Part shown: positions 4,667-52,287 of the stretch, in pieces
Layout of the letters: each line of letters begins with the position of its first letter
Numbering within the stretch: position 1 is the stretch's first letter
NCBI GenBank assembly: GCA_000991245.1
Contig: LBRD01000006.1
Span: forward strand, 103,340 to 167,339
DNA length: 64,000 bases
Direction of reading: 5' to 3'
Source: Parcubacteria group bacterium GW2011_GWC1_36_108
GTDB taxonomy: Bacteria > Patescibacteriota > Minisyncoccia > Moranbacterales > GWC2-37-73
Program-made: the position numbers and the translations under genes
Notes under the pieces: generated by a model
What the model saw: only the letters and a program-made list of their open reading frames with translations
The model's database searches: none
Told to the model about the DNA's origin: nothing

Positions 4667-6100
4667 TCATTTTACTGTAATGTTTTTGGTGTAGGATTCA
4701 ACGAATCCATCCTTCCACCGTTTTTCTTCGAGTTCGACGGTGGTCATTGTTGTGCCACCGATTTTGGTGCCGGAGGAAGCTTTGATGATTTTACCGTTCC
4801 AGCTGGTGGAGAAATCGTTGTTGATAACAACTTCTCCATTTGCATCTGAGACAGCACTTTGGAGCAATGGCTGCGGGAATGGCTGGATGTAATAATTCGC
4901 CGTGCCATTTTTACTGTTTGGATCAATAGTATTGGTCAGCGTTCCGAAAACTTTTACCTCGCCGACGACTGGGTTTCCAAGTGAATTGACGAGTCTCACT
5001 TTAACAACTTTTGGCAAGTTGTTAGCGATTTGCCACATATCAACCTGATGGTTAGCATTATTGGTTGCCAACCAAGCATTAAAGGGCGAGAATATTGTCC
5101 CGGTCCATAAACCTGGTTCTGTCATTGGATCTTTTGGATATAAAGCCCTAAGGCTATATGATTCCAAGATTGGGGCAACATTAGTTCGATCCTGAAAAGC
5201 AATACCATACCATTCGGGTACGCCACCCGCAAGGGTATGCATAAATTCTTGGCAAGTACTAAATATAACACTATCAAAATATGTTGGACTAAGTTTTTCT
5301 ATTTCACTTCTGCCAAGCAACACTGTCATTTCATCCTCCGCCTTATAAATGGTATAGTATTTCTTTCCATTCATAACATGACTAGTGGTAAAAGTATAGG
5401 AGTATTGCGAAGTGATATACGCGGGAATTTCGCTCCTATCCTTATATATGAAATAAACGAGTGTTGTCCCTCCGTAGGTCGGGCTGCCCGGAAAATCATT
5501 GTCATAATAATTCGACGGGTCTTCTTGAATCCCATCAAATTGGGCATTGGTATAACTCTTCACCTGCCCAACTTGATATCTTTTTGTTGTGTTCTTTGCA
5601 AAAACCGCACTAACCTCTGAGATTGCGGCTCCTGCATTTTTTACCACATCGGGATGCGCGTCATAAAAAGATTTGTTGACGAGCACAGGAATAACTTCCG
5701 GATTAAGCGCTGGCACTGGTGCCAGTTTCAAGGTTGTTACGGTCGGCGCAGAGATATTGACAACAGCTTCAAACTTTGCACTTGATCCTGCCGCATTTGT
5801 TGCGACAAGACTTGGACTGTGCGACCCAACAGCGTAAGTATGCACTGGGTTTTGTTCAGAGCTGGTTGCACCATCTTTGAAATCCCAGTACCAATTTGTT
5901 GGCGATTCTGTTGCTGTACCGTTAAACTTTGCTGTCAAGCCTGTCACCTCAACGGTAAACGAGGCTACAGGCACTTTACTTGTTACCGGTGGGGTTACTG
6001 GAGAAGAAGAATCTCCTCCACCTCCGCCACCACAAGCAGCAAAGAAAACCAGACAAACAAACAGCATTCCTAACTTCAGCCAATAAAATCTTGAGTTCAT
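4667..6100 (-). CDS. Secreted lipoprotein with PKD domain
   Basis: Signal peptide plus lipobox (LVFFAAC, then a Gly run); WYWDFKDGATSSEQNPVHTY is a classic PKD signature. Confidence 0.75.
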   Translation of the reverse strand: MNSRFYWLKLGMLFVCLVFFAACGGGGGGDSSSPVTPPVTSKVPVASFTVEVTGLTAKFNGTATESPTNWYWDFKDGATSSEQNPVHTYAVGSHSPSLVATNAAGSSAKFEAVVNISAPTVTTLKLAPVPALNPEVIPVLVNKSFYDAHPDVVKNAGAAISEVSAVFAKNTTKRYQVGQVKSYTNAQFDGIQEDPSNYYDNDFPGSPTYGGTTLVYFIYKDRSEIPAYITSQYSYTFTTSHVMNGKKYYTIYKAEDEMTVLLGRSEIEKLSPTYFDSVIFSTCQEFMHTLAGGVPEWYGIAFQDRTNVAPILESYSLRALYPKDPMTEPGLWTGTIFSPFNAWLATNNANHQVDMWQIANNLPKVVKVRLVNSLGNPVVGEVKVFGTLTNTIDPNSKNGTANYYIQPFPQPLLQSAVSDANGEVVINNDFSTSWNGKIIKASSGTKIGGTTMTTVELEEKRWKDGFVESYTKNITVK

Positions 6101-6242
6101 GGTTGGCCTCCTTGGCCTCTACATAGCGGTGATTGACGATTTTGCCCTTTTTCTAGATCCTAACTATTTATATATGTAAAGATACTGATATTCAAAATCT
6201 CAAAAGAGACTTCCTCGTATGATTGCATAAAAAATACTTTTT

Positions 6243-6350
6243 GTCAACCCCGTTAGAAATTTCAAAAATAGTCGCTGATTACTTATAGACTTAGGATATA
6301 AAGCATCCTATTCAAATTGATAATGCATGTGAAATTTCTAACGGGGTTAA
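6243..6350. mobile_element. MITE-like element, family M1 copy 1 (TIR tcAACCCCGTTAGAAATTTc ... gAAATTTCTAACGGGGTTaag)
   Basis: ~20-bp near-perfect terminal inverted repeats ~70 bp apart; same TIRs at 18972-19082 and, diverged, at 25566-25677. Confidence 0.5.
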
Positions 6351-10857: not shown

Positions 10858-11134
10858 TTCTTTTTTTAATAATATTATATCAATAAAAGAATTGTACCAA
10901 ATTAGACTTACTTTGTCAATACAATATTTTTATAGCTTAATACAGCCATTTACCAAGGTTATTTTTTAAAAGTATCTTTATTATACCACAAAAAAAAACA
11001 AAAAAAGTTATGCACAGTTCTCATGCAACATATGGCATATAACATATAACATAAATACCAGCATGCAGATACAAAAAATCCATGAGGCACTTGCCGAAAT
11101 TCAAGGCTAGTTCAATAGACGCTGAACAAGAGAG

Positions 11135-17578: not shown

Positions 17579-18832
17579 TTACTTCTCCATTTTTCTTCTA
17601 ATAAAAGCCGGGATTTCAAGTTCGTCATCTTCCTCCTCAGCTTTTGTTTCCGAAACAGGATTGATAGTTCGAGGTTGAATTTTATCTTCAATAATCATTC
17701 TAGGTTCAAGAATTTTTTTGACAGGAAATGTTATTGCATCTTTAAGTTCTTCATTTTCCATCTTTTCTTCTTTTTCAGCAATTGTTTCATGCGAGGCTAC
17801 GCCTGCTCTCACTCGATTAAGAAGTGGGTTTTCAACAACGCGATCAGCATCAAAACCTGTGGCCACCACTGTGACGTGAATTTCGCCTTTTTTGACTTGA
17901 TCATCCACCACCGCTCCGAAGATAACTTTAGCATTGGGGTCGACACTTTCTGTGATAATATTGGCAGCTTCATTAATTTCAAGCATTCCAAGATCACTTG
18001 AACCTGAGATATTGAAAAGCACACCTTTAGCACCATCTATCGAAAGTTCGAGCAATGGGCTGTTGATTGCAGCGCGAGCGGCCTCTGCAGCTCTATTTTC
18101 GCCGCTAGCGATGCCGATACCCATCAGAGCCGATCCAGAGTCCTGCATAATTGCGCGCACGTCAGCGAAGTCCACATTAACGATACCGGGTTTAGTAATG
18201 AGGTCGGAAATTCCTTGTACACCTTGTCTTAGAACATCATCCACGATTCTAAAGGCGTTAATAAGGGTTGTTTTTCTATCAATAATTGAAAGCAATTTGT
18301 CATTAGGAATGGTAATAAGCGTGTCAACTCGATCTCGCAGATTTTGCAAACCTTCTTCTCCAAGATTTCTTCGTTGAGCACCTTCAAATGAAAACGGTTT
18401 GGTCACAACAGCAACTGTCAGTGCGCCCAATTCTTTGGCCGTTTCAGCCACCACTGGAGCAGCGCCAGTTCCCGTTCCTCCACCCATACCAGCACAAACA
18501 AAAACCATATCAGCACCTTTAAGCACATCTTGAATTTCATCACGATTTTCTTCAGCTGCTTGCCTTCCAATTTCAGGATTCATTCCCGCACCAAGACCTT
18601 TGGTAAGATTTTTCCCAATATGCACCTTTTCTGAAGCTTTTGAATGATGCAAGGCTTGCGCATCAGTATTGATTGCCACAAATTCGACCCCTTTGATTTT
18701 GGAATCGATCATTCTGCTGATTGCATTGTTTCCAGAGCCTCCAACACCAACAACCTTAATTCGAGCAAATGTTTCAATATCGGGTTTGATTTCTGCCATA
18801 TTTTTACAATAGTTAGCAGCATATGCCGCCAA
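17579..18832 (-). CDS. ftsZ: Cell division GTPase FtsZ
   Basis: [15 protein letters not shown] and [14 protein letters not shown] tubulin/FtsZ signature motifs. The true start may be the internal MAEIKPD. Confidence 0.95.
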
Positions 18833-18971
18833 ACAATAAATATAAATTAGAATTTTCTGAATTTGCTTCCTTTTTTATTTTTATTTTTATTGTTGTTTTG
18901 TCAGTTCACTAAGCCTGTTTCAATACCAGTTTTTTCTTAGTTCTTTAATTTATCACAGCTTCGATAGCTAT

Positions 18972-19082
18972 GTCAACCCCGTTAGAAATTTTAAATTCTT
19001 ATTTTTAACCTAAAAACTACACTCATATACAAAAACTATAACCTATAAAAACCTATCTGTAAAAATTTCTAACGGGGTCAAC
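18972..19082. mobile_element. MITE-like element, family M1 copy 2, inserted in the ftsA-ftsZ intergenic region
   Basis: TIRs gtcAACCCCGTTAGAAATTTt ... aAAAATTTCTAACGGGGTcaac; the right end abuts the ftsA stop codon. Confidence 0.5.
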
Positions 19083-20350
19083 TAAGGCAAAAATTTCTTA
19101 ATCCACTGTCTGGCTTTTTCAACACCGTCCCCTGTTCCGCGTTTAAAGATATCCACAGCCTTTGAATTCAAAAAATTCTCATTAGAATAAGTTGCGTTTC
19201 TTTGCTGAGACCACAAGACAAGTCCTGCTGCTGTGGCGAAAGAAGGATCATCAACCTTATCAAGAACACCGCCCAAGCCCAAAGGAAAACCAATTTGTAC
19301 TGGCAAGCCCAAAATTTCTTTTGCAAGATCAGCAGTGTGTGTCATTTTTGCGCCACCACCAACCAACACAGCGCCCGAAGGAAGCAATCCCGCTTTTCCA
19401 ATTAATTTCAATTCCTTTTGCACGAGTAAAAATATTTCTTCGAATCTTGCTTCAATAATTTCTGCAATATGAAAACGAGAAACAACACCTTCTTCTCCTG
19501 AGTCTATTTGCGCAAGGTCAATGCCTTCTTTTTTATTTGTGTCGCGAGAAAGTGCGCTTCCATATTCAAGTTTAATTTTTTCTGCCACATCAATAGAAGT
19601 TCGCAGCCCAATAGCAATGTCGTTTGTGATATGTCCTGCCCCAACTGGGATTATGGCGGTGTGCACAAGGTCGCCTTCTTCATATACAGCCAATGAAGTT
19701 GTTCCGCCTCCGATGTTGATGAGCACAACTCCAAGTTCTTTTTGCTTTTTGCTTAAAACTGCTTTTGCTGCAGCCAATGGTTCAAGCACAAGATCATCAA
19801 TTTCAATGTTTGCTTGATATGCACATTTGCTTATATTTTTAATATGAGAAGAATTGCTTTCAATAACCAAGGCATCAACCTCCAAACGAACACCTTTCAT
19901 CCCAAGCGGATCCTTGATATTGTCTTGATCATCAAGTCTATATTTTTTTGCAAGCACGTGAACAATTTCCCTGTTCATTGGCAATGAAATTATTTGTGCC
20001 TCGGAAATAACCCTGTTAATATCATCTTCCATAACTTCCCCGTCTGCTTTTCCGATTGCTATAACCCCTTTGGAATTTTGAAAACCAATATCCGATCCTC
20101 CAATATTAAAAATTGCTTTTTTAACTTGAACTCCAGCCATATGTTCTGCTTTTTCAACTGATTCATTGACTGCTTTTATAACATCTTCGATGTCAATTAT
20201 AACTCCACGCCTAATTCCGAAAGAGGGAGTTATGCCAACCCCAATAACACGAGGATTTTCCTCGTTTCTAATTTGTTGTGCAATCACAGTACGCACATTT
20301 GTTGAGCCGATATCTATCCCAACAACTACCGAATTATTATCCCTAGCCAT
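19082..20350 (-). CDS. ftsA: Cell division protein FtsA (actin-like ATPase)
   Basis: VVGIDIGSTNVRTVIAQ N-terminal phosphate-1 motif; 422 aa; immediately upstream of ftsZ. Confidence 0.9.
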   Translation of the reverse strand: MARDNNSVVVGIDIGSTNVRTVIAQQIRNEENPRVIGVGITPSFGIRRGVIIDIEDVIKAVNESVEKAEHMAGVQVKKAIFNIGGSDIGFQNSKGVIAIGKADGEVMEDDINRVISEAQIISLPMNREIVHVLAKKYRLDDQDNIKDPLGMKGVRLEVDALVIESNSSHIKNISKCAYQANIEIDDLVLEPLAAAKAVLSKKQKELGVVLINIGGGTTSLAVYEEGDLVHTAIIPVGAGHITNDIAIGLRTSIDVAEKIKLEYGSALSRDTNKKEGIDLAQIDSGEEGVVSRFHIAEIIEARFEEIFLLVQKELKLIGKAGLLPSGAVLVGGGAKMTHTADLAKEILGLPVQIGFPLGLGGVLDKVDDPSFATAAGLVLWSQQRNATYSNENFLNSKAVDIFKRGTGDGVEKARQWIKKFLP

Positions 20351-20392
20351 AATATTAAAAATTTCTAATTTTTCAACACTTAACCTTCATAG

Positions 20393-20523
20393 GACTTACG
20401 CATTTTCTCAACTATTTCTTATTTGGCACGCTTTTGGATGAATACTCAATATCCAAAAGCTCAAAGAGTTGCTGTCGCCAACAATTGGCCAAAAAAGAAA
20501 TGTTTCGAAATGCGTAACTTCTG
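20393..20523. repeat. Dispersed repeat family REP-A copy A (short form) with ~12-bp TIRs ACTTACGCATTT / AAATGCGTAACT
   Basis: Core ttggcacgcttttggatgaat...atccaaaagctcaaagagt.gctgtcgccaacaattggccaaaaaagaaatgtttcgaaa shared with 25369-25560, 32210-32300 and 45950-46136 (inverted); contains hairpin gcttttggat/atccaaaagc. Confidence 0.55.
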
Positions 20524-22487: not shown

Positions 22488-22671
22488 AGAAAAACCTCCT
22501 CTCTATAGTTTATGATTACTTATCTATAACCTATCATATTGTACTGAAAAACTCAAACAAGTCAACCACACGGCTTTCGCCGAAGTTATAAAGTTCATAA
22601 AGTTACAAGTTTATAAAGTAAATACAAAACCTTACAACCTTACGAACTTTAAAAACCTTACGAACCATTTT

Positions 22672-23125: not shown

Positions 23126-24553
23126 TTCTCCTTCGTGGGAAACAACCACATTGTTTTTTAATATTTTTCTTACCGCAATGATAAGGCGTTCGTGATTGAC
23201 AGTTTCTTGCGTGCCACTGACCATATCTTTCACAATCACTGTTTCATCGAGAGCTTCTTTTTGACCAATGATCAAAGTGATTTCAACACCAAGCCTGTCA
23301 GCCACGCGAAGTTGTGATTTTAATGATCCGCGTCCAAAACTTTCCGCAGTCAAAATTCCATTTTTTTGAAGTTCCGCAAAAACATTCAAACTTTTTTTCT
23401 TTGCCAAATCTCCAAGTTGTGCCAAAAATACTCGAGGCTTCGGTTCGATATACATTTTTGCATGCACGCGCTTCATTTCCTGCACGATTCTGTCCATACC
23501 TATTCCAAATCCAATAGCTGGTGTGTGTTCTCCACCCAATTCTTCAATCAAATGATCATATCGTCCTCCACCACCAAGTGAGTGTTTTTTGCCCTCTTCG
23601 TCGCCAGACCAAATTTCAAAAACTGTTTTAGTATAATAGCTAAGACCCCTAACCAAACGAGGATTAATCACATACGGCAAATCAAGCTCATCCAAATATT
23701 CCAACAAGCTCTTGAAATGAACGCGACATTCGGTGCAAAGTCTGTCTATTGATTGAGGCGCTGTTGTTGCAACTTGAATACATTTGTCTTCCTTGCAATC
23801 CAAAATTCTAAGCGGGTTTATTTCCAATCTTTTTTTGCAATTAAGACAAAGCTTCTGTTTTTTTGATTCAAAATATGCCACCAAAAGTTCTTGATATTCT
23901 TTGCGACATTTTGGACAACCGATCGAGTTAACTTGAAATTGAATATTTTTAATTCCCAAACTTGTAACCACGCGATGAGCCAATTGAATAAGCTGCGCGT
24001 CAAGAATAGGATCTTGTTCTCCAAAAGCATCGAAATTTGCTTGGAAATGTTCTCGATAGCGCCCTTCTTGCGGACGATCATAGCGATACACTGGACCAGT
24101 TGAAAAAAGTTTCACTGGTTTTGAAAGCACGTTCATTCCGTGTTGAATATACGCTCGTCCAAGGCCTGCAGTTAATTCTGGTCTAAGCGCAACTTTGTCT
24201 CCACCTTTGGTAGTAAACATATACATTTCCTTGTCCACGATGTCAGTTCCCTTTCCAATTGAACGAACAAATAAATTGGCATATTCCACAGCCGGCGTGT
24301 CAATACGCTGAAATCCATAGTCAATAGCCACACGCGCGAGCACGCGTCTCAGTTGATTCCAATAGGGCTGATCTCCTGGTAGAAGATCTCGCATACCCCT
24401 TGGTGGTTGCATTAAAATTTCCTCCTGAACCTGCATTTTTTCTTTCAAAACCTTCTTTGCTGTCGGAGCTTTCACTGCTTTTTTTGCGGTTGTTTTTTTA
24501 TCCATTTTTTTTGCAACGCTTTTCTTTATTATTTTATCTTTTACTTTTGCCAT
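23123..24553 (-). CDS. hisS: Histidine--tRNA ligase
   Basis: RGMRDLLPG and YRYDRPQEGRYREHFQ class-II aaRS / HisRS motifs. Start set at MAKVKDK; the first 12 codons of the track ORF are read from the AT-IR repeat. Confidence 0.9.
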   Translation of the reverse strand: MAKVKDKIIKKSVAKKMDKKTTAKKAVKAPTAKKVLKEKMQVQEEILMQPPRGMRDLLPGDQPYWNQLRRVLARVAIDYGFQRIDTPAVEYANLFVRSIGKGTDIVDKEMYMFTTKGGDKVALRPELTAGLGRAYIQHGMNVLSKPVKLFSTGPVYRYDRPQEGRYREHFQANFDAFGEQDPILDAQLIQLAHRVVTSLGIKNIQFQVNSIGCPKCRKEYQELLVAYFESKKQKLCLNCKKRLEINPLRILDCKEDKCIQVATTAPQSIDRLCTECRVHFKSLLEYLDELDLPYVINPRLVRGLSYYTKTVFEIWSGDEEGKKHSLGGGGRYDHLIEELGGEHTPAIGFGIGMDRIVQEMKRVHAKMYIEPKPRVFLAQLGDLAKKKSLNVFAELQKNGILTAESFGRGSLKSQLRVADRLGVEITLIIGQKEALDETVIVKDMVSGTQETVNHERLIIAVRKILKNNVVVSHEGE

Positions 24554-24665
24554 ACAATTACAAAAGTTCATAAAGTTTATAAAGTTCAAATTTTATAAAG
24601 CAAACGCATTCAAATACTTTATAAACCTTAAAAACTTTACGAACCTTTGACTTTCTAAACCATTT
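24549..24665. repeat. AT-rich inverted-repeat spacer, TATAAAGTT family
   Basis: ttcataaagtttataaagttcaaatt...ctttataaaccttaaaaactttacgaacc: tandem tataaagtt words and their complements around a central spacer; same architecture at 17470-17580, 22575-22672, 29655-29828 and 51782-51870. Confidence 0.45.
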
Positions 24666-24729: not shown

Positions 24730-25362
24730 CTATAGTATTTCTGCTTTTGTGAATGGCCAGGCTCTGATCAGAACTTTTCCGATAACATCATTTTCAGGAA
24801 GAGCACCCCAAGCGCGAGAATCATGAGAAAACTGACGATTATCGCCCAATACAAAATATTCATTATCTTTGATTGTTGTTGTTACAGCTCCGTTAGTTAT
24901 TGATCCTGCGGACAAATAAGCGCGCTCATCAAGCACCAACCCTTCAGGATTTTCATCATTATAAATAGTAACCTTGCCTGCTTCAACTTTCACTTGCTCC
25001 CCTGGAAGTCCGATTACACGCTTAATGAAAAATTGCTTAGGATCACGAGGATAACGAAAAACCACAACATCTCCGCGATTCAATTCTTTGAAAGATCCTA
25101 TTGTAAAAAGATGCATCCCATCAACATTAGCGTTTGTTTCTTTATAGCCCAACTCATTAACTATCAAATAATCGCCGTCTTTAAAATTTGGCTCCATACT
25201 TGCACCTTGCACAAAAAAGGGCTGAAAAAGGAAAACTCTGATTGGAACAATAATGATAAGTGCCCAGAAAAAGACTTTTACCACTTCCCAAAGAAAACTT
25301 CCGACACCATAATACACTTCTTCTTCTGTTTCAATATTATTGTTTATTTTTTCCATATTCAT
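24730..25362 (-). CDS. lepB: Signal peptidase I
   Basis: GASMEPNFKDGD (catalytic Ser box) and KRVIGLPGE (Lys box). Start moved to MNMEK; the first codons of the track ORF come from REP-A copy B. Confidence 0.85.
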   Translation of the reverse strand: MNMEKINNNIETEEEVYYGVGSFLWEVVKVFFWALIIIVPIRVFLFQPFFVQGASMEPNFKDGDYLIVNELGYKETNANVDGMHLFTIGSFKELNRGDVVVFRYPRDPKQFFIKRVIGLPGEQVKVEAGKVTIYNDENPEGLVLDERAYLSAGSITNGAVTTTIKDNEYFVLGDNRQFSHDSRAWGALPENDVIGKVLIRAWPFTKAEIL

Positions 25363-25368
25363 AGGATT

Positions 25369-25560
25369 TACGCTTTTTCTCAACTATTTCTTATTTGGCA
25401 CGCTTTTGGATGAATGTTTACCCCGTCAAATCCAGCAAAGCTGGTGTTCACTGCTGTGAACAATTTGACGGGGCGAGTATCCAAAAGCTCAAAGAGTCGC
25501 TGTCGCCAACAATTGGCCAAAAAAGAAATGTTTCGAAAACAATGATACCACGCATCAGCC
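25369..25560. repeat. REP-A copy B (long form with 53-nt nested hairpin insert ccccgtcaaat...atttgacgggg)
   Basis: Same core as copy A plus the insertion ccccgtcaaatccagcaaagctggtgttcactgctgtgaacaatttgacgggg, a perfect 11-bp stem. Confidence 0.55.
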
Positions 25561-25565
25561 TCAGG

Positions 25566-25677
25566 CGCAAGCCCCGTTAGAAGCCTCTAAAGAGCTATTT
25601 TTTGACATTTTAGCACAATCAAATTAAACAATAAGTTCAATACTATAGAATTTGTGGAAAGCTTCTAACGGGGCAAG
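25566..25677. mobile_element. MITE-like element, family M1 copy 3 (diverged TIR gcaaGCCCCGTTAGAAgc ... gcTTCTAACGGGGCaagc)
   Basis: 18-bp TIRs; interior block agaagcctctaaagagctattttttgacattttagc is duplicated just outside the right TIR (25688-25725), where it forms the likely promoter of the LCP gene. Confidence 0.45.
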
Positions 25678-25728
25678 CCCACTAAATAGAAGCCTCTAAT
25701 ACGCTGTTTTTTGACATTTTAGCCTAAA

Positions 25729-27411
25729 TTGCGTACCATACTAACGATGGATGGTATCAGAAAAAAACAAATTTTAGCACCAAACACAACAGAAGTTGAC
25801 TCCCATTCGGAATCGAACGCTGTTTTTCAGCGACAAGAACCACAATCTCAATATTTTCCAAAAAGAGAGGAACTTTATATCCCCCGCGAAGAAACTATGC
25901 AAACTATGCAAGAAGAAAAGGATGAAAAAAAATTTCAAAAGGGGCGACTGTTGCAAAAAATATTATGGACTTCCTTGATAATCGCGATACTGCTTTTGCT
26001 TTCTTTTACAATATTTTTTCTTAGTAAGACATACCTTACTACCAAAAAAATGAATGATTCTTCCACGCAGACATCATTGTCGCAGGATATGAAATCACTT
26101 TTTTCTCCAATTATCCCATCATCTGATAAACACATTTTAAAAGGAGAAGACGAGGGACGCATCAATATTTTGCTACTTGGCGCAGCGGGAGAAAACAAAC
26201 CCGGAGGAAATCTGACCGACACAGTGATGATTATGAGTATTGATACCAAGAATAAAAAGGTTGCACTTCTTTCTTTGCCAAGAGATTTTTATGTTCCAAT
26301 TCCTGCCTCTACGGCAGGCGAGCCTGATTCACAATCGTTTACCAAAATTAACAGCTTATACAAAATCGGACTTGCCCAGCAAAAAGGAGCAGATTTAATC
26401 AAACAAGCTGTAGAAAAAGTTACGGCAGTAGAGATGGATTATTACATCGCAGTTGACTTTGATGCTTTTGCAAAAATTATTGATAACATCAATGGTATCA
26501 ATGTGATGGTTGAGCGCGACATATATGACCCGACATATCCTGGACCAAATTATAGCTATGAACTTTTTGCATTGAAAAAGGGCGCTCATTTGCTTGGTGG
26601 CGATGTTGCACTCAAATATGTTCGCGAACGGCACGACGATCCAGAAGGTGATTTTGGCAGGGCCAAGCGTCAACAACAAGTTATTCAAGCAGTCAAAAGC
26701 AGGCTATTTTCAATGCAAACAATATTTAATGTTGTCGCATTAAATAATGTGCTCAACACACTTGGAAACAATATTAAAACGGATATGTCATTTGATGATA
26801 TTGAACAGTTTATAAAATTAAGCAAAGATGTCGATACACAAAACATTACCAATGTGGTTGTTGATGCGTGGAAGCCTGACAGTTTGCTTAAGGTTTCACA
26901 CATAATGCTGGGAAACGACCGCGCCTTTATTTTGATTCCGCGTATTGGCAATTACAGTGAAATCCAAGATCTTGCTCAAAATATTTTTGACCAGACGGAA
27001 TTGAAAAAACGTCAAGCAGAAATTTTACAGGAAGATGCAAGCATTGCTATCATCAATCAATCCTCAGATGCCGAACTTGATGACAAAATTAAAAAGTTGC
27101 TCACAGAAAAGTTGAAATTCAAAAATGTAAAAATTATTTCCAACGATTCTAATGAAATCAAAAACAAAACCACTGTCGCCAGTAATTCTGATGTCGAAAA
27201 AATATTCACTCTTGATGAACTGATCAAAAAACTTCCTGCAACGATTGATTCACCCGCCAGCAACGCTTCGCGTAGCGATGCGGGCTGGCAAAAGACTGAT
27301 CTGGAAAATGACATCACAATAACACTTGGAAACGATTTGATTGATATTTATAAATATGAAGAAGACACTATGCAGGATTTAGAGAAAGCGCAGGACAGTC
27401 AATTCAATTAA
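25729..27411 (+). CDS. LytR/CpsA/Psr (LCP) family cell-envelope phosphotransferase
   Basis: N-terminal TM then ILLLGAAGENKPGGNLTDTVMIMSIDTKNKKVALLSLPRD, the LCP core motif. Confidence 0.85.
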   Translation: MRTILTMDGIRKKQILAPNTTEVDSHSESNAVFQRQEPQSQYFPKREELYIPREETMQTMQEEKDEKKFQKGRLLQKILWTSLIIAILLLLSFTIFFLSKTYLTTKKMNDSSTQTSLSQDMKSLFSPIIPSSDKHILKGEDEGRINILLLGAAGENKPGGNLTDTVMIMSIDTKNKKVALLSLPRDFYVPIPASTAGEPDSQSFTKINSLYKIGLAQQKGADLIKQAVEKVTAVEMDYYIAVDFDAFAKIIDNINGINVMVERDIYDPTYPGPNYSYELFALKKGAHLLGGDVALKYVRERHDDPEGDFGRAKRQQQVIQAVKSRLFSMQTIFNVVALNNVLNTLGNNIKTDMSFDDIEQFIKLSKDVDTQNITNVVVDAWKPDSLLKVSHIMLGNDRAFILIPRIGNYSEIQDLAQNIFDQTELKKRQAEILQEDASIAIINQSSDAELDDKIKKLLTEKLKFKNVKIISNDSNEIKNKTTVASNSDVEKIFTLDELIKKLPATIDSPASNASRSDAGWQKTDLENDITITLGNDLIDIYKYEEDTMQDLEKAQDSQFN

Positions 27412-28588: not shown

Positions 28589-29668
28589 ATGAAACACTTA
28601 AACGCTTTGAATACAATTTACGGACTTGGGAATCAAAAAATGAAATTGTTGATGAGTTTTTTTGAAAACGCAGAGCAAGTTTGGCAAGCGTCTCGCGAGG
28701 AACTTTTGAAATCTGGTATCGGAGAAAAAATTGCACAAAAAATTGTCGAGCAAAGACCTCTTATTGATATTGAAAAAGAATGGGAAAAATTGGAAAAGGA
28801 AAACATTCTCGCCATTGGACTTGATGACCCTCACTACCCCGCCCTGCTCAAGCAAATTCCAGACAATCCTTATCTTATATATATGAAGGGAGATTTGACC
28901 TGCCTTGACTTTCCGTTGGTTGCTATTGTTGGGTCGCGAAAATTGACAGAATATGGCAACGATGTTGCCCGTGGATTTGCCAGAGACTTGGCCGACAGTG
29001 GCATTTGTGTTGTTAGTGGTCTTGCCTTTGGAATCGATGCTATGGCCCACTCTGGAGCGCTTGAGGTCAAAGGAAGAACGATTGCCGTGCTCGGAAACAG
29101 CTTGGACGCCGAAAGCATCTCGCCGCGCACCAACTTTCAACTTTCCGAAGACATTATTAAAGGTGGCGGACTTTTGATTAGCGAATTTCCAGTTAAAACA
29201 TCTGCTACTGTTGGAACATTCCCTATGCGTAATCGCATTATGGCTGGAATGAGTCTTGGCACATTGGTTGTTGAAGCCGCAGAAAAAAGCGGTAGTCTTA
29301 TTACTGCCAACTTGGCCTTGGATTATAATCGCGATGTTTTTGCCGTGCCGGGATCAATCTTTTCGCCCCAGTCAACAGGAACACATCTACTCATTAAAGC
29401 TGGAGCTAAACTTGCAACTTGTGTGGGCGACATTTTAACCGAACTGCGAATCGAAAGCGGCAAAAAAATACCTCTTGAAGCAAAAGTTTTTGACCTGACA
29501 GATGATGAAAAAATAGTGCACACAGTTCTTTCCCACGAAAGCCTCCACATTGACAGAATATCAAAACTGACTAAACTTGAGACATCGACCATTTCCTCAA
29601 TACTCGCAATGATGGAAATAAAAGGCGCAATCAAGAACGTCGGAGGACAGAATTATATAAAGTTATAA
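28589..29668 (+). CDS. dprA: DNA processing protein DprA (Smf)
   Basis: VAIVGSRKLTEYG...CVVSGLAFGIDAMAH Rossmann-like DprA core. Confidence 0.9.
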   Translation: MKHLNALNTIYGLGNQKMKLLMSFFENAEQVWQASREELLKSGIGEKIAQKIVEQRPLIDIEKEWEKLEKENILAIGLDDPHYPALLKQIPDNPYLIYMKGDLTCLDFPLVAIVGSRKLTEYGNDVARGFARDLADSGICVVSGLAFGIDAMAHSGALEVKGRTIAVLGNSLDAESISPRTNFQLSEDIIKGGGLLISEFPVKTSATVGTFPMRNRIMAGMSLGTLVVEAAEKSGSLITANLALDYNRDVFAVPGSIFSPQSTGTHLLIKAGAKLATCVGDILTELRIESGKKIPLEAKVFDLTDDEKIVHTVLSHESLHIDRISKLTKLETSTISSILAMMEIKGAIKNVGGQNYIKL

Positions 29669-29828
29669 AGTTATAAAGTTCATAAAGTTTATAAAGTTAT
29701 AAAGCAAGAATCGAAAATATTTCATCATTATAATCATAAAGTTCGTAAAGTTCATCAAGTTTATAAAGTAAAAATGCATTCTACTTTATAAACTTTAAAA
29801 ACCTTATAAACTTTAAAAACTTATTAAA
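29655..29828. repeat. AT-rich inverted-repeat spacer, TATAAAGTT family (largest copy)
   Basis: ataaagttataaagttataaagttcataaagtttataaagttataaagc ... ctttataaactttaaaaaccttataaactttaaaaac: six or more direct words, then complementary words. Confidence 0.45.
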
Positions 29829-32132
29829 ATGAAGCTAATAATCGTTGAGTCTCCTACTAAAGCAAAGACTATAACAAAATTTTTGGGTAAAGGTTTCACA
29901 GTGAAATCTTCTTTTGGTCATGTGCGTGATTTGCCAAAAAGTGGGATGGGGGTGGATATTGAAAAAGATTTCACACCAAGCTATGAAATTCCAGACAAAG
30001 CGCGCATCAAGGTGGCTGAACTTTTGAAACTCTCCAAGAAAGCTGATGAAGTTATTCTAGCTTCCGATGAAGACCGCGAAGGAGAAGCGATTGCTTGGCA
30101 CTTGGTTGAAGCGTTAGGATTAGATAAGAAAAACAAAAAACCATATTCTCGTATTGTTTTTCATGAAATTACAAAAAATGCAATTTTGAAAGCATTAGAA
30201 ACTCCGAGAGAGATAGATATAAATTTGGTTGACGCTCAGCAGGCACGGCGCGTGCTTGATCGATTGGTTGGATATGAACTTTCTCCATTTTTGTGGAAAA
30301 AAATTCGTCGCGGACTTTCCGCTGGACGCGTGCAATCAGTAGCGCTGCGCTTTATTGTTGAGCGCGAACGAGAAATTCAAGCTTTTGTTGCTGAAGAATT
30401 TTGGACAATTTCTGCCAAACTTCACCCTGTTAAATCCGGCGGGGTCGCCGGTGCGAAGCAATTTAACAGGGTGAAAAAAGAAAAAACTAACGATGAATTT
30501 GAAGCCAATTTACTGGAGCAAAATGGAGAAAAAATTGAACAAACCATCACGTTAAAACTTTTTACCGGAGATTATAAAACCAAAAAAAGTGTCATTGCCA
30601 ACAAGAAAACAGCCGAGCAGATTACCAGTGAACTCAAAGATGCGAAATATCAAGTTTTGTCAGTTGAGAAAAAAGAAACGATGCGAAGTCCTTCCGCCCC
30701 TTTTACTACTTCGACTTTGCAACAAGCTGCCATCAGCAGTTTTGGTTTTTCAGCCAAGCAAACAATGATGACGGCGCAAAAACTTTATGAAGAAGGTTAC
30801 ATCACATATATGCGAACTGACAGTATGAATCTGTCATTGGAATCTTTAATGAGCGCAAAAAAAATAATTGAAAAAGAATTTGGTAAAAATTATTCATTGG
30901 AAAGTCCTCGCTATTTCAAAACAAAATCAAAAAGCGCGCAAGAAGCTCACGAAGCTATCCGTCCAACTGATCCGGAAAAAACTCCTGATGAGCTGATGCC
31001 GCTTTTGGAAACCAATCAATACAAATTATACCGCCTCATTTGGAACCGAATGATTGCTTGCCAAATGCAAAACGCAAAATTAAATTCTGTTAAAGCTGAC
31101 ATCGAAGCTGCCGGAAAGAAAAATAAATTCTTGCTGCGAGCATCTGGCTCAACCGTTGTTTTTGATGGTTTTTTGAAAGTATACGAAAACAGAGCGGCGC
31201 AAGCTGAATCATTTTTGCCAGAACTAAAAAAGGGAGATCCGCTTTCTGCTTTGGAGGTTTTGCCATTGCAAAAATTTACCTCTGCCCCACCACGATATAA
31301 TGAAGCAACATTGGTTAAGGTTTTGGAAGAACACGGAATTGGCCGACCTTCAACTTATGCACCAACCATTTCAACTATTATTGACCGCAAATATGTTGAT
31401 AAAAATGAAGATAAGAGATTGTTTCCTCTGGAAATTGGTTTTCCAGTTAATGACCTTTTGGTTGAGCATTTTCCAGAAATTGTCGGCATCGATTTTACTG
31501 CAACTATTGAAAAAAGTTTTGATGAAATTGCCGAAGGAAACAAGCCTTGGGTTCCGGTAATTCGAGATTTTTATGGACCATTTCACAAATTGCTTGAAGA
31601 AAAAACTGACAGTGTCAAAAAAGAAGATTTGGTGGAAAAACTTGATCGACCCTGCCCTACTTGCGGAGCAGAATTAGTTATGAAATTTGGACGCTTTGGA
31701 AAATTTATCGCTTGCAGCAATTATCCAACTTGTAAATATACTGAAAAAACCGACAGTGAAAAAAAGGAGGATGAAGAAAATTCCGGGGTTATTTGTGACA
31801 AATGTGGAGCACCAATGGTTGTCAAACGCGGAAGATTCGGTCCATTTTTGGGTTGCTCAAAATATCCAGAATGCAAAAACATTATGAATATTGAGAAAAA
31901 AACCGGAGTTAAATGTCCCAAGTGTCAAAAGGGAGATATTATTGAACGCAAATCCAAAAAAGGCAAGATGTTTTATGGTTGCAACAAATATCCAGCTTGT
32001 GACTTCGTGATGTGGAACAAGCCTACGGGAGAAATGTGTCCATCTTGTGGACAACCACTTGCTTTTGCTGCCAAAGGAAAAACCAAATGCTCAAACAAGG
32101 AGTGTGGAAAAACATTTGACGCAAAAGAATAG
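29829..32132 (+). CDS. topA: DNA topoisomerase I
   Basis: MKLIIVESPTKAKTI TOPRIM N-terminus; C-terminal CxxC...CxxC zinc-ribbon repeats; 767 aa. Confidence 0.95.
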   Translation: MKLIIVESPTKAKTITKFLGKGFTVKSSFGHVRDLPKSGMGVDIEKDFTPSYEIPDKARIKVAELLKLSKKADEVILASDEDREGEAIAWHLVEALGLDKKNKKPYSRIVFHEITKNAILKALETPREIDINLVDAQQARRVLDRLVGYELSPFLWKKIRRGLSAGRVQSVALRFIVEREREIQAFVAEEFWTISAKLHPVKSGGVAGAKQFNRVKKEKTNDEFEANLLEQNGEKIEQTITLKLFTGDYKTKKSVIANKKTAEQITSELKDAKYQVLSVEKKETMRSPSAPFTTSTLQQAAISSFGFSAKQTMMTAQKLYEEGYITYMRTDSMNLSLESLMSAKKIIEKEFGKNYSLESPRYFKTKSKSAQEAHEAIRPTDPEKTPDELMPLLETNQYKLYRLIWNRMIACQMQNAKLNSVKADIEAAGKKNKFLLRASGSTVVFDGFLKVYENRAAQAESFLPELKKGDPLSALEVLPLQKFTSAPPRYNEATLVKVLEEHGIGRPSTYAPTISTIIDRKYVDKNEDKRLFPLEIGFPVNDLLVEHFPEIVGIDFTATIEKSFDEIAEGNKPWVPVIRDFYGPFHKLLEEKTDSVKKEDLVEKLDRPCPTCGAELVMKFGRFGKFIACSNYPTCKYTEKTDSEKKEDEENSGVICDKCGAPMVVKRGRFGPFLGCSKYPECKNIMNIEKKTGVKCPKCQKGDIIERKSKKGKMFYGCNKYPACDFVMWNKPTGEMCPSCGQPLAFAAKGKTKCSNKECGKTFDAKE

Positions 32133-32209
32133 AGAATCGTCTATCTCAAAAATGGACTACGCGCAATGTATGGTTTTAAATGCTGAATGCAACGCTTAAT
32201 TTTTTGTTT

Positions 32210-32300
32210 GCCTATTTCCTTTTTGGCACGCTTTTGGATGAATGCTCAATATCCAAAAGCTCAAAGAGTCGCTGTCGCCAACAATTGGCCAAAAAGAAAA
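32210..32300. repeat. REP-A copy C (core only, no TIRs)
   Basis: tttttggcacgcttttggatgaatgctcaatatccaaaagctcaaagagtcgctgtcgccaacaattggccaaaaagaaa. Confidence 0.5.
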
Positions 32301-45949: not shown

Positions 45950-46136
45950 TCAGAAGTTACGCGTTTCGAAACATTTCTTTTTTGGCCAATTGTTGGCGAC
46001 AGCGACTCTTTGAGCTTTTGGATACTCGCCCCGTCAAATTGTTCACAGTAGTGAACACCAGCTTTGCTGGATTTGACGGGGTAAACATTCATCCAAAAGC
46101 GTGCCAAAAAAGAAATAGTTGAGAAAATGCGTAAGT
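45950..46136. repeat. REP-A copy D (long form, inverted orientation) with TIRs
   Basis: Reverse complement of the copy-B architecture, including the nested hairpin ccccgtcaaattgttcacagtagtgaacaccagctttgctggatttgacgggg; ends agttacgcgttt ... aaatgcgtaagt. Confidence 0.55.
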
Positions 46137-46385
46137 CCTAAATATTCATATTTGCCATTTTATCAGCAATAACATCTATTCTGCTCGCTATTTTAATTTT
46201 TGGCAAGACCTGTGGTGCATAAATGCCTAATTACTAATTCCCAATTTCTAATAAAATTCCCAATATCAAATTTCAAAATTTTAACATTAGAAATTTATTT
46301 TTTATTAGAAATTAGATATTAGACATTAGAAATTTGCAAATAATATATATGCAAATACATATGCAAACATCGCACTCACTTGTGA

Positions 46386-51781: not shown

Positions 51782-51870
51782 AATATATAGTTATAAAGTT
51801 TATAAGGTTTTTAAAGTTTATAAAGTAAAATACATCCACACTTTACGAACTTTATGAACTTTACGAACTT

Positions 51871-52287
51871 TTAACTTATTAATTTATTTTTCAAATTAGT
51901 TAATTGTTTTTTCACACTACCATCTATAATATCATCATTAATCTTGATTATAATTCCTCCTTGAATCTTTTCATCAATAACATTCTTGATCTCCACAACT
52001 TTAGCTGAATATTTTTCTTTCACAAATTTTTCAATTTTCTCTTTCATTTCGTGTTCAATTTTTTCCTTTGTCACAACTTCGGCCACAATTATTCCATTTG
52101 CAGCATTATATAATTCGCCAAATTTTTCCATTATTTTTCCAGCATTTTTCAATTGTCCGTCAGCCTTCAATTGCTGCGCAAATTTTTTCACAATAACTAA
52201 AAGCTCCTGCTCGGATTTTCCGTCGGTCATTTCAAAAAGTGTTTGGGAATATTGCTTAATGGATACTTTCATTTTTGTGAATATCAA
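51871..52287 (-). CDS. atpH: ATP synthase delta (OSCP) subunit
   Basis: 138-aa helical protein between atpF and atpA; weak OSCP-like C-terminus. Confidence 0.65.
   Translation of the reverse strand: MIFTKMKVSIKQYSQTLFEMTDGKSEQELLVIVKKFAQQLKADGQLKNAGKIMEKFGELYNAANGIIVAEVVTKEKIEHEMKEKIEKFVKEKYSAKVVEIKNVIDEKIQGGIIIKINDDIIDGSVKKQLTNLKNKLIS

Follow-up and report, generated by a model that had tools for sequence, protein, structure and literature searches.

The Correia elements of Neisseria, the RUP elements of Streptococcus pneumoniae and ERIC are non-coding sequences of about 100-150 bp that carry terminal inverted repeats (TIRs), are flanked by a short target-site duplication (TSD) and occur in many intergenic copies, often near promoters or gene ends, where they are transcribed as hairpins. 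Here we describe three elements in a 64,000-nucleotide stretch of the genome of Parcubacteria group bacterium GW2011_GWC1_36_108 (contig LBRD01000006.1, positions 103,340 to 167,339; the whole stretch is called the window), which share with these systems their size, TIRs, short TSD, intergenic copies and sites at promoters and gene ends. It is very probable that the three are non-autonomous DNA transposons of the MITE type (miniature inverted-repeat transposable elements) and members of a single widespread family, about 100 bp long and non-coding, with 13-bp TIRs and a 4-bp TSD of the form (G)TNNA(C). The family nevertheless differs from its described counterparts. Correia, RUP and ERIC duplicate TA, belong to single genera and have longer inverted repeats and conserved interiors, whereas here 4 bp are duplicated at TNNA, 13 bp are conserved at each end, the interiors are mostly unrelated and the hosts come from many phyla.

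Comparison can also be made with elements that are less similar as a whole. REPINs, which are built from repetitive extragenic palindromic (REP) sequences, lack a TSD; they are species-specific sequences passed on by vertical inheritance and linked to a single-copy RAYT (REP-associated tyrosine transposase) gene, and none of these traits is seen in the present family. The ends of Tn3-family transposons are conserved across distant bacteria, but they are 38 bp long, start with GGGG and are accompanied by a 5-bp duplication, in contrast to the 13-bp ends starting with CCCC and the 4-bp duplication found here. The terminal repeat of piggyBac is 13 bp, and IS1380 insertion sequences (ISs) have ends that begin with CC and duplications of 4-5 bp. 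The piggyBac duplication is TTAA and the ends read CCCTT or CCCTC, with IS1380 as the prokaryotic outgroup (PMC10813416). The present family is like these two in its 4-bp T...A duplication and in ends starting with CC(C), and unlike piggyBac in that the middle two bases of the target are free. A further likeness is to TIMEs, Tn3-derived inverted-repeat miniature elements (PMC4133298), whose ends likewise derive from a transposon family in a miniature element.

The sequence CCCCGTTAGAA occurs six times in the window, forming three inverted pairs (Table 1); dinucleotide-preserving shuffles gave a mean of 0.45 occurrences and none of 100 reached six. Each of the three elements has CCCCGTTAGAA...TTCTAACGGGG ends with a 4-bp repeat outside them, which is a perfect duplication in two copies and has one mismatch in the third, and together they amount to one element per 21 kb. 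No further arm pair was found in the window, even when up to three mismatches were allowed per arm. The interiors of the three copies do not align with one another and no open reading frame (ORF) of 60 or more amino acids is confined to any of them. A previous interpretation made from the letters of the window alone, referred to here as the sequence-only reading, had placed the elements at 6243-6350, 18972-19082 and 25566-25677 and had credited them with inverted repeats of 18-21 bp. The elements themselves are real, but these bounds took in the 4-bp flanks together with one base at one or both ends, and the repeat lengths had likewise counted flank bases, the correct values being those of Table 1 for the window and 13 bp for the family.

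The pattern CCCCGTTAGAA-N62-92-TTCTAACGGGG, which allows element lengths of 84-114 bp, was scanned for in one genome per species (185,579 species, 596 Gb) and the paired end motif was recovered in at least 120 genome stretches from many phyla. By our own estimate about one match would be expected by chance, given 22 fixed bases and 31 spacings in 596 Gb. All of the matches listed are from metagenome-assembled genomes (MAGs), with groundwater, sediment and similar habitats as their sources. The hosts listed from the candidate phyla radiation (CPR) include Moran-, Sacchari-, Doudna-, Kaiser-, Gribaldo-, Falkow- and Buchananbacteria, Kazan and others, and those listed from outside it are Thermodesulfobacteriota/Deltaproteobacteria, Planctomycetota, Omnitrophota, Nitrospirae, Elusimicrobia, Cloacimonadota, Clostridia, Bdellovibrionales and Gammaproteobacteria. 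The same end-pair pattern gave no match in 2.9 million viral contigs.

Family statistics were drawn from 125 distinct elements among the matches listed. Their 4-bp flanks are identical direct repeats in 78 cases, where random re-pairing of the flanks averaged 13.4 and never exceeded 24; a further 17 elements have flanks that differ by one base, and inverted flank matches are found in only five. The duplicated 4 bp are T-N-N-A in about 88%, with G enriched before and C after, which defines a palindromic target, (G)TNNA(C). Each element end consists of 11 invariant nucleotides (CCCCGTTAGAA) and two variable ones that match across both ends. Positions 12 and 13 match within the element in 108 and 99 of the 125 (73 and 45 expected), and since complementarity falls to chance level from position 14 onward, the inverted repeat has a length of exactly 13 bp.

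Most of the elements, 112 of about 130 that were scanned, measure 90-109 bp, and the same loci contain shorter ones as well (about 26-31 and 50-60 bp), giving size classes of about 29, 53 and 100 bp. The forms of 28-31 bp consist of little else than the two arms and a loop of 2-7 nt and still have 4-bp duplications. Extra copies, besides the matched one, occur in the carrier loci at about one per 23 kb. Most interiors (85 of 125) are singletons. A GC-rich subfamily of 27 members, mostly deltaproteobacterial and represented also in Parcubacteria, Sedimentisphaerales, Clostridia and Nitrospirae, shares a layout of closing stem, GC hairpin with a C(A/T)TTAAA loop, AT-rich linker and second GC hairpin, with some compensatory changes, and shows a modest bias in orientation, 18 of 25 copies lying on the strand of the upstream gene against seven. 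When folding was compared with shuffles, GC-rich interiors had a mean z of about -2.3 to -2.4, and AT-rich interiors, including those of all three window copies, a z of about 0. One MAG, DX4.bin27 (L002, L004, L024), carries identical 94-bp copies on four contigs, with differing flanks and in both orientations, and two contigs break at the repeat; the identity of these copies is a sign of recent activity. Two individual elements may be recorded here. In a Bdellovibrionales MAG (L045, 5057-5166) the element ends enclose a complete tRNA-Ala gene at 5074-5146 (Rfam tRNA, 64 bits), with unmatched flanks TTTA/CGAG, and a 48-bp variant, TCCCGTTAGAG...CTCTAACGGGA, located 22 nt upstream of the start of a 23S rRNA gene in a Parcubacteria MAG (L019, 6507-6554), has TAAA as its duplication.

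Five of the features that mark a MITE are found in these elements: small size without coding capacity, shared TIRs, a TSD of fixed length, dispersed identical copies and an empty-site polymorphism. The MITE-like nature proposed in the sequence-only reading is borne out by the TIRs, the 4-bp TSD, the many copies in many genomes and the empty site in a close relative described below. Phyletic breadth and minimal forms are unusual for a family of this sort, which is still a MITE in kind. The family also appears to be undescribed. At the gathering threshold Rfam returned only tRNA and rRNA from the window and 18 loci, the relaxed matches (E <= 10) on copy 2 all had E > 1, and the literature searches brought up no relevant paper on the end sequence, on TNNA duplications or on MITEs in combination with CPR names. 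In the mechanism that we propose, a transposase supplied in trans would bind both ends and make cuts staggered by 4 nt at TNNA, the element would be joined in, and gap repair would duplicate the 4 bp. Copy 2 would in this manner have entered the ftsZ -35 hexamer at its TTGA, right after the ftsA stop codon; as the duplication regenerated TTGA beside CA, the resident ftsZ promoter survives and only the DNA upstream of the -35 box would have been replaced.

Table 1. Coordinates of the elements, their flanks and the neighbouring genes and promoters (positions in the window)
Feature	Positions	Strand	Length	Details
Paired element ends, motif form				CCCCGTTAGAARN...NYTTCTAACGGGG
Copy 1	6248-6346		99 bp	Perfect end complementarity 17 bp; flanks TCAA (6244-6247) and TTAA (6347-6350), imperfect duplication
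Copy 2	18977-19077		101 bp	13-bp TIRs 18977-18989 and 19065-19077; perfect complementarity 16 bp; flanks TCAA/TCAA
Copy 3	25572-25673		102 bp	'GC' subtype CCCCGTTAGAAGC; perfect complementarity 13 bp; flanks 25568-25571 and 25674-25677 both CAAG
Copy 2 TSD, ftsZ side	18973-18976			TCAA on plus strand, TTGA on gene strand; first 4 nt of ftsZ -35 hexamer
Copy 2 TSD, ftsA side	19078-19081			TCAA; adjoins ftsA stop codon (19082-19084)
Resident ftsZ promoter	18947-18976	minus		-35 TTGACA (18976 to 18971), 18-nt spacer with TG, -10 TAAATT (18952 to 18947)
Promoter-like site, PKD-domain gene	6219-6247	minus		-35 TTGACA (6247 to 6242), 17-nt spacer, TGc-AATCAT (6224 to 6219); gene start 6100
Resident sequence 3' of copy 3	25678-25739	plus		Starts with degenerate end-like stretch CCCACTAAATAGAAGCC, followed by LCP promoter
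LCP promoter	25711-25739	plus		TTGACA (25711-25716), 17-nt spacer, TACCAT (25734-25739); LCP ATG at 25747
ftsA	20350-19082	minus		Pfam
ftsZ	18832/18799-17579	minus		Pfam
PKD-domain gene	6100-4667	minus		Pfam
Signal peptidase	25383-24730	minus		Pfam
LCP-family gene	from 25747	plus		Pfam

Analysis of related strains proved informative for the copy between ftsA and ftsZ. By exact match of its FtsA and by the closest homologues of that protein, the window belongs to a Candidatus Moranbacteria (CPR) population of the Rifle aquifer. Copy 2 is present in every assembly with an identical FtsA. In L127, the closest different strain (FtsA 98% identical), the site is empty, the intergenic region is about 95 nt shorter and a single TTGA lies inside TTGACA, the sequence being ...GCCATAATTTTTTTGGGT-TTGA-CATAGTTGCC... 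where the gene strand of the window has ...GCCTTAG-TTGA-(element)-TTGA-CATAGCTATC...; empty sites in related strains were what the sequence-only reading had asked to be looked for. The site is empty in L129-L131 as well, and in L128 (FtsA 91% identical) the same position holds a decaying homologue of the copy (69% identity over the alignment), with ends CCCTGTTGGAA... and ...TTTTACGGGG. L127 and the window are not alike in the stretch from the ftsA stop to TTGA, so that no single clean event accounts for the difference between their alleles, and gain, loss and allele exchange between strains are all compatible with the comparison. The ftsZ promoter, which has 10 of 12 consensus matches and the TG, is kept in L127, L128, L129, L130 and L131, with or without the element, and is therefore resident.

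Copy 2 had been thought to fill the ftsA-ftsZ gap and to abut the ftsA stop. The right 4-bp flank does adjoin the stop, but the element and flank occupy only about 105 of the 250-280 nt or so between the genes, the rest consisting of the resident promoter and leader. No terminator-like site or U-tract was found at copy 2, and copies are abundant elsewhere, so the alternative of terminator hairpins without other copies fails. The predicted RNA stems of the copies have energies of -21 to -38 kcal/mol (z -4.5 to -7.2). Read-through transcripts from ftsA would, on these folding predictions, carry the stem of copy 2 (16-19 bp), with a possible effect on stability or processing, and loss of the DNA upstream of the -35 box is another possible effect of the element on expression. 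Separately, the ftsZ 5' leader (18800-18946, about 150 nt) contains blocks conserved in relatives with FtsA 82-98% identical, namely TTAAAGAACTAAG, and GCAATTTCAG...CTAATTTATAT.AATTG.TTGGCG...GCTAAC.ATTGTAAAAATATGG, and may be a regulatory leader.

Copy 1 adjoins the TTGACA of the PKD-domain gene in the same arrangement as copy 2 at ftsZ, and it is kept in all strain variants. Between two haplotypes it has nine differences, all of them within positions 21-73 of 99, which leaves the outermost 20 and 26 nt unchanged. In the promoter-like site of the PKD-domain gene the haplotypes differ at six of 17 spacer positions, and both boxes are identical.

Copy 3, also present in all strain variants, has a TTGACA in its interior at 25602-25607. 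Positions 25568-25614, 47 nt that start at the left CAAG and extend into the element, can be aligned with 25674-25723 (50 nt from the right CAAG), both containing TTTTTTGACATTTTAGC, so that the 38-bp block which had been reported as duplicated outside this copy is real, and longer than had been given. The remainder of the interior has no significant similarity to the LCP 5' region. In L152 (FtsA 89% identical) the LCP-peptidase spacer is 181 nt long and has no element, and TTTTTTGACATTT lies at the same distance from the conserved start ATGGATGG. The occurrence of the LCP promoter in this element-free strain means that the outer promoter is resident and that the block inside copy 3 is a derived copy. 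One possibility is that it originated by aberrant repair or conversion between the older degenerate end CCCACTAAATAGAAGCC and the present end. The suggestion that these elements deliver or duplicate promoters therefore does not stand, as the ftsZ and LCP promoters are present in element-free relatives (L127 and L129-L131 for ftsZ, L152 for LCP). To judge from the alignments it is wrong in direction, copy 3 holding a partial copy of the resident LCP promoter.

The origin of interiors as filler from nearby host DNA was considered and rejected, since it applies to copy 3 only and none of about 125 others matches host DNA within 3 kb. A metagenome scan for 'GC' ends followed by TTGACA yielded no relative of the copy 3 interior, in a search that also missed the window's own population and was estimated to carry 50-100 chance matches; it returned elements of 28-39 bp with TTGA duplications on TTGACA and a 68-bp subfamily. 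Copy 3 had further been described as lying back-to-back with a copy of the REP-A repeat, which is loosely correct: the two are 33 nt apart in the window and 50 nt more in other strains. The difference is a 50-bp segment, ATGCGTAACTTCTGATTTATTTAAAGTAAGATAAAATTCATCCTAAACAC, between REP-A and copy 3 in L132-L136, which is absent from the window (25540-25545), and the intergenic regions of this Moranbacteria population vary generally by small indels. As to the LCP gene itself, the ATG at 25747, which other assemblies call as its start (554 aa), is separated by 7 nt from the end of the -10 element TACCAT. This spacing suggests a leaderless LCP mRNA, and the mechanically assigned ORF start, TTG at 25729, is probably wrong.

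The positions of copies 1 and 2 have parallels in the family as a whole. Outward flanks start with TTGACA in 10 of 250 cases, where 1.24 would be expected from positional frequencies, and CA follows in 10 of the 18 cases where the duplication is TTGA; several of these sites have a good -10 at 16-18 nt (TATAAT in L006, for example). Nine flanking ORFs end at a TAG inside the repeat (CCC CGT TAG) and 12 end within or directly at the duplication; TAAA and TGAA, both of which contain stop codons, are among the commonest duplications. Target preference and survival of harmless insertions cannot be separated as causes of this landing at -35 boxes and stop codons.

Several observations weigh against interpretation of the family as MITEs. 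A perfect duplication is absent in 47 of the 125 elements, and MITE ends do not usually keep 11 nt exactly the same across phyla. The forms of 28-31 bp with duplications fit poorly with the usual synapsis of two duplex ends and are hard to reconcile with it. Co-variation of positions 12-13 between the ends hints at constraint on single-stranded structure, as do the two conserved inner hairpins of the 27-member subfamily together with its orientation bias, and the haplotype comparison hints, at this one locus, that the ends of copy 1 may be constrained. Finally, neither an autonomous partner nor a transposase having these ends turned up in the window, in the flanking loci (120 loci, about 0.9 Mb) or in the 2.9 million viral contigs.

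The partner was sought in other ways also. The 64-kb window contains no transposase or recombinase gene, its other genes being of a housekeeping kind (ATP synthase, a hydrogenase-like complex, ParAB, RelA/SpoT, tRNA synthetases and toxin-antitoxin pairs). When 895 ORFs from the 120 loci were clustered, no recurrent neighbour gene emerged, only housekeeping functions (ABC ATPases, PNPase, EF-G etc.), and the few unpaired ends in the loci have no adjacent large ORF. With regard to IS1380, a sample of three members obtained by tblastn with the ISEcp1 transposase (ISKpn23, IS1678 and a Lactiplantibacillus member) included two that end in CCTGAAT... and a third whose ends were not clearly readable; the two readable members have a 5-bp duplication, as against 4 bp in this family. 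The ends of the sampled members and of ISEcp1, where they are readable, are of the form CCTGAAT... or CCTAGAT..., not CCCCGTT, with only the initial CC in common, and tblastn with four IS1380 transposases found no related gene in the family loci searched. The likeness to IS1380 and piggyBac is thus a lead, a resemblance and not a demonstrated membership. Integron attC sites were rejected from the sequence: with respect to the stem the core-like motifs GTTAGAA/TTCTAAC come in the wrong order, and the copies are solitary, lie near core genes and have no integrase.

Of the other explanations, the one that survives best, improbable as we hold it to be, is that the elements are mobile hairpins, in which a folded single strand or cruciform closed by the CCCCGTTAGAA stem would be moved by a structure-specific enzyme and the interior would be irrelevant cargo. 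This would accommodate the retention of 4-bp duplications by the minimal forms of 28-31 bp, the discrete size classes, the co-variation of positions 12-13 between the arms, the recurrence of a closing stem with two inner hairpins both in the subfamily of 27 members and in the window's 53-bp family, the enclosure of a tRNA gene by one element, and the presence in the same genomes of a second palindrome, CCTGCCTGCCGGCAGGCAGG, that is polymorphic between strains. However, duplication of 4 bp at a palindromic target is the mark that dimeric DDE-type enzymes classically leave when they act on duplex DNA, whereas the known single-strand transposons (IS200/IS605) leave no duplication; moreover, the AT-rich copies, all three in the window included, are without interior structure (mean z near 0), and no candidate enzyme was found in the loci searched. 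A wider proposal, doubtful but not negligible, is that the CCCCGTTAGAA elements, the 53-bp CCCCGTCAAAT hairpins and the 20-bp CCTGCCTGCCGGCAGGCAGG palindrome form a cross-phylum guild of ultra-small mobile hairpins, which would pass between the members of groundwater and sediment communities and be moved by an undescribed enzyme that recognises a folded stem in place of two separate duplex ends. If true, this would explain the 28-31-bp forms, the arbitrary cargo including a tRNA, and ends that are identical from CPR to Planctomycetota; the TNNA(C) target would favour -35 boxes and stop codons, and gene boundaries in compact genomes would be repeatedly remodelled.

It is very unlikely that the elements are instead a structured RNA or transcript signal kept by the host, such as a terminator, RNase III site or stabiliser, and not mobile DNA at all. 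The strength of the terminal stem, the frequent location of elements within a few nt of ORF ends, the orientation bias of the structured subfamily and the conservation of the copy 1 termini between haplotypes would agree with such a role. Against this, the interiors are mostly unrelated singletons, Rfam gave no such match in the window and 18 loci, no U-tract or terminator pattern was seen, the symmetric ends make an element look alike on both strands, the L128 copy is decaying, and duplications together with presence or absence between close strains need insertion. Hardly any probability attaches to invertible promoter switches, in which a site-specific invertase would act on the inverted repeats beside ftsZ and the LCP gene: inverted repeats do flank some 75 bp near gene starts, with promoter-like hexamers inside copy 3 (the interior TTGACA) and copy 2 (TTTACA-17-TATAGT), but the number of promoter-like hexamers is at chance (3 against 1.8 +/- 1.4), copies 1, 2 and 3 each have a single interior orientation in about 30 independent assemblies of the population, the real promoters lie outside the elements, no recombinase gene is nearby, and duplications in random genomic contexts across phyla do not fit. 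REP/REPIN repeats spread by a domesticated RAYT (HUH) transposase are scarcely credible here, for although two short conserved inverted sequences with a variable spacer form an intergenic hairpin unit of about 100 bp at high density in both cases, the present family has a TSD that REPINs lack, 11-mers identical across phyla where REP sequences are lineage-specific, and no recurrent neighbouring gene.

Other repeats were encountered in and around the window. REP-A, a repeat of about 180 bp, is present at 20386-20523, 25358-25538, 32186-32300 and 45951-46140 (93-98% identical over 90-177 nt), and three of the four copies precede a gene start by about 40 nt or less (those of ftsA, the signal peptidase and a NuoB-like gene). 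Two of them contain a hairpin of the 53-bp family (25421-25473 and 46029-46081), of the form CCCCGTCAAAT...ATTTGACGGGG with two inner hairpins, which is related to the CCCCGTTAGAA elements; REP-A at 20412-20500 and 32212-32300 is without it. The 53-bp hairpin has no clean duplication (TTTA/CGAG), and strain L135 has a 35-bp deletion within it. A 20-bp GC palindrome, CCTGCCTGCCGG(C/T)AGGCAGG, is inserted in L132 at 4814-4833 (corresponding to about 25509 of the window) and is absent from the window and the other strains. It recurs in L003, L018, L033, L062, L068, L075, L100, L101, L111, L157 and L182, among them loci from several other phyla, is found twice inside CCCCGTTAGAA elements, and may be a second tiny mobile palindrome. 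Many intergenic regions also contain AT-rich repeats with a period of 9 nt, TATAAAGTT / ACTTTATAA, arranged as inverted blocks, and repeats of the CATATAACATATAGCA type (sites at 22583-22665, 24545-24665, 29657-29841 and 51786-51889, and at 11021, 23040, 27440, 35860 and 57640), which may be shared regulatory or terminator modules.

If the elements are MITEs, as we think very probable, the finding bears on the CPR (Patescibacteria), whose genomes are small. To our knowledge no MITE family has been described from these bacteria, and the literature search that paired MITEs with CPR names returned none. The identity of the ends across phyla points to gene flow between very distant co-resident bacteria or to a very conserved mobilising enzyme, and the transposase, if found, could define a new IS group. 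The 22-nt paired motif offers a simple marker for strain-level variation and horizontal transfer in metagenomes. For annotation of the window it follows that the ftsZ and LCP promoters are to be regarded as resident and not as borne by the elements. Restoration of a -35 box or a stop codon by the duplication would provide a way for insertions beside essential genes such as ftsZ to be tolerated.

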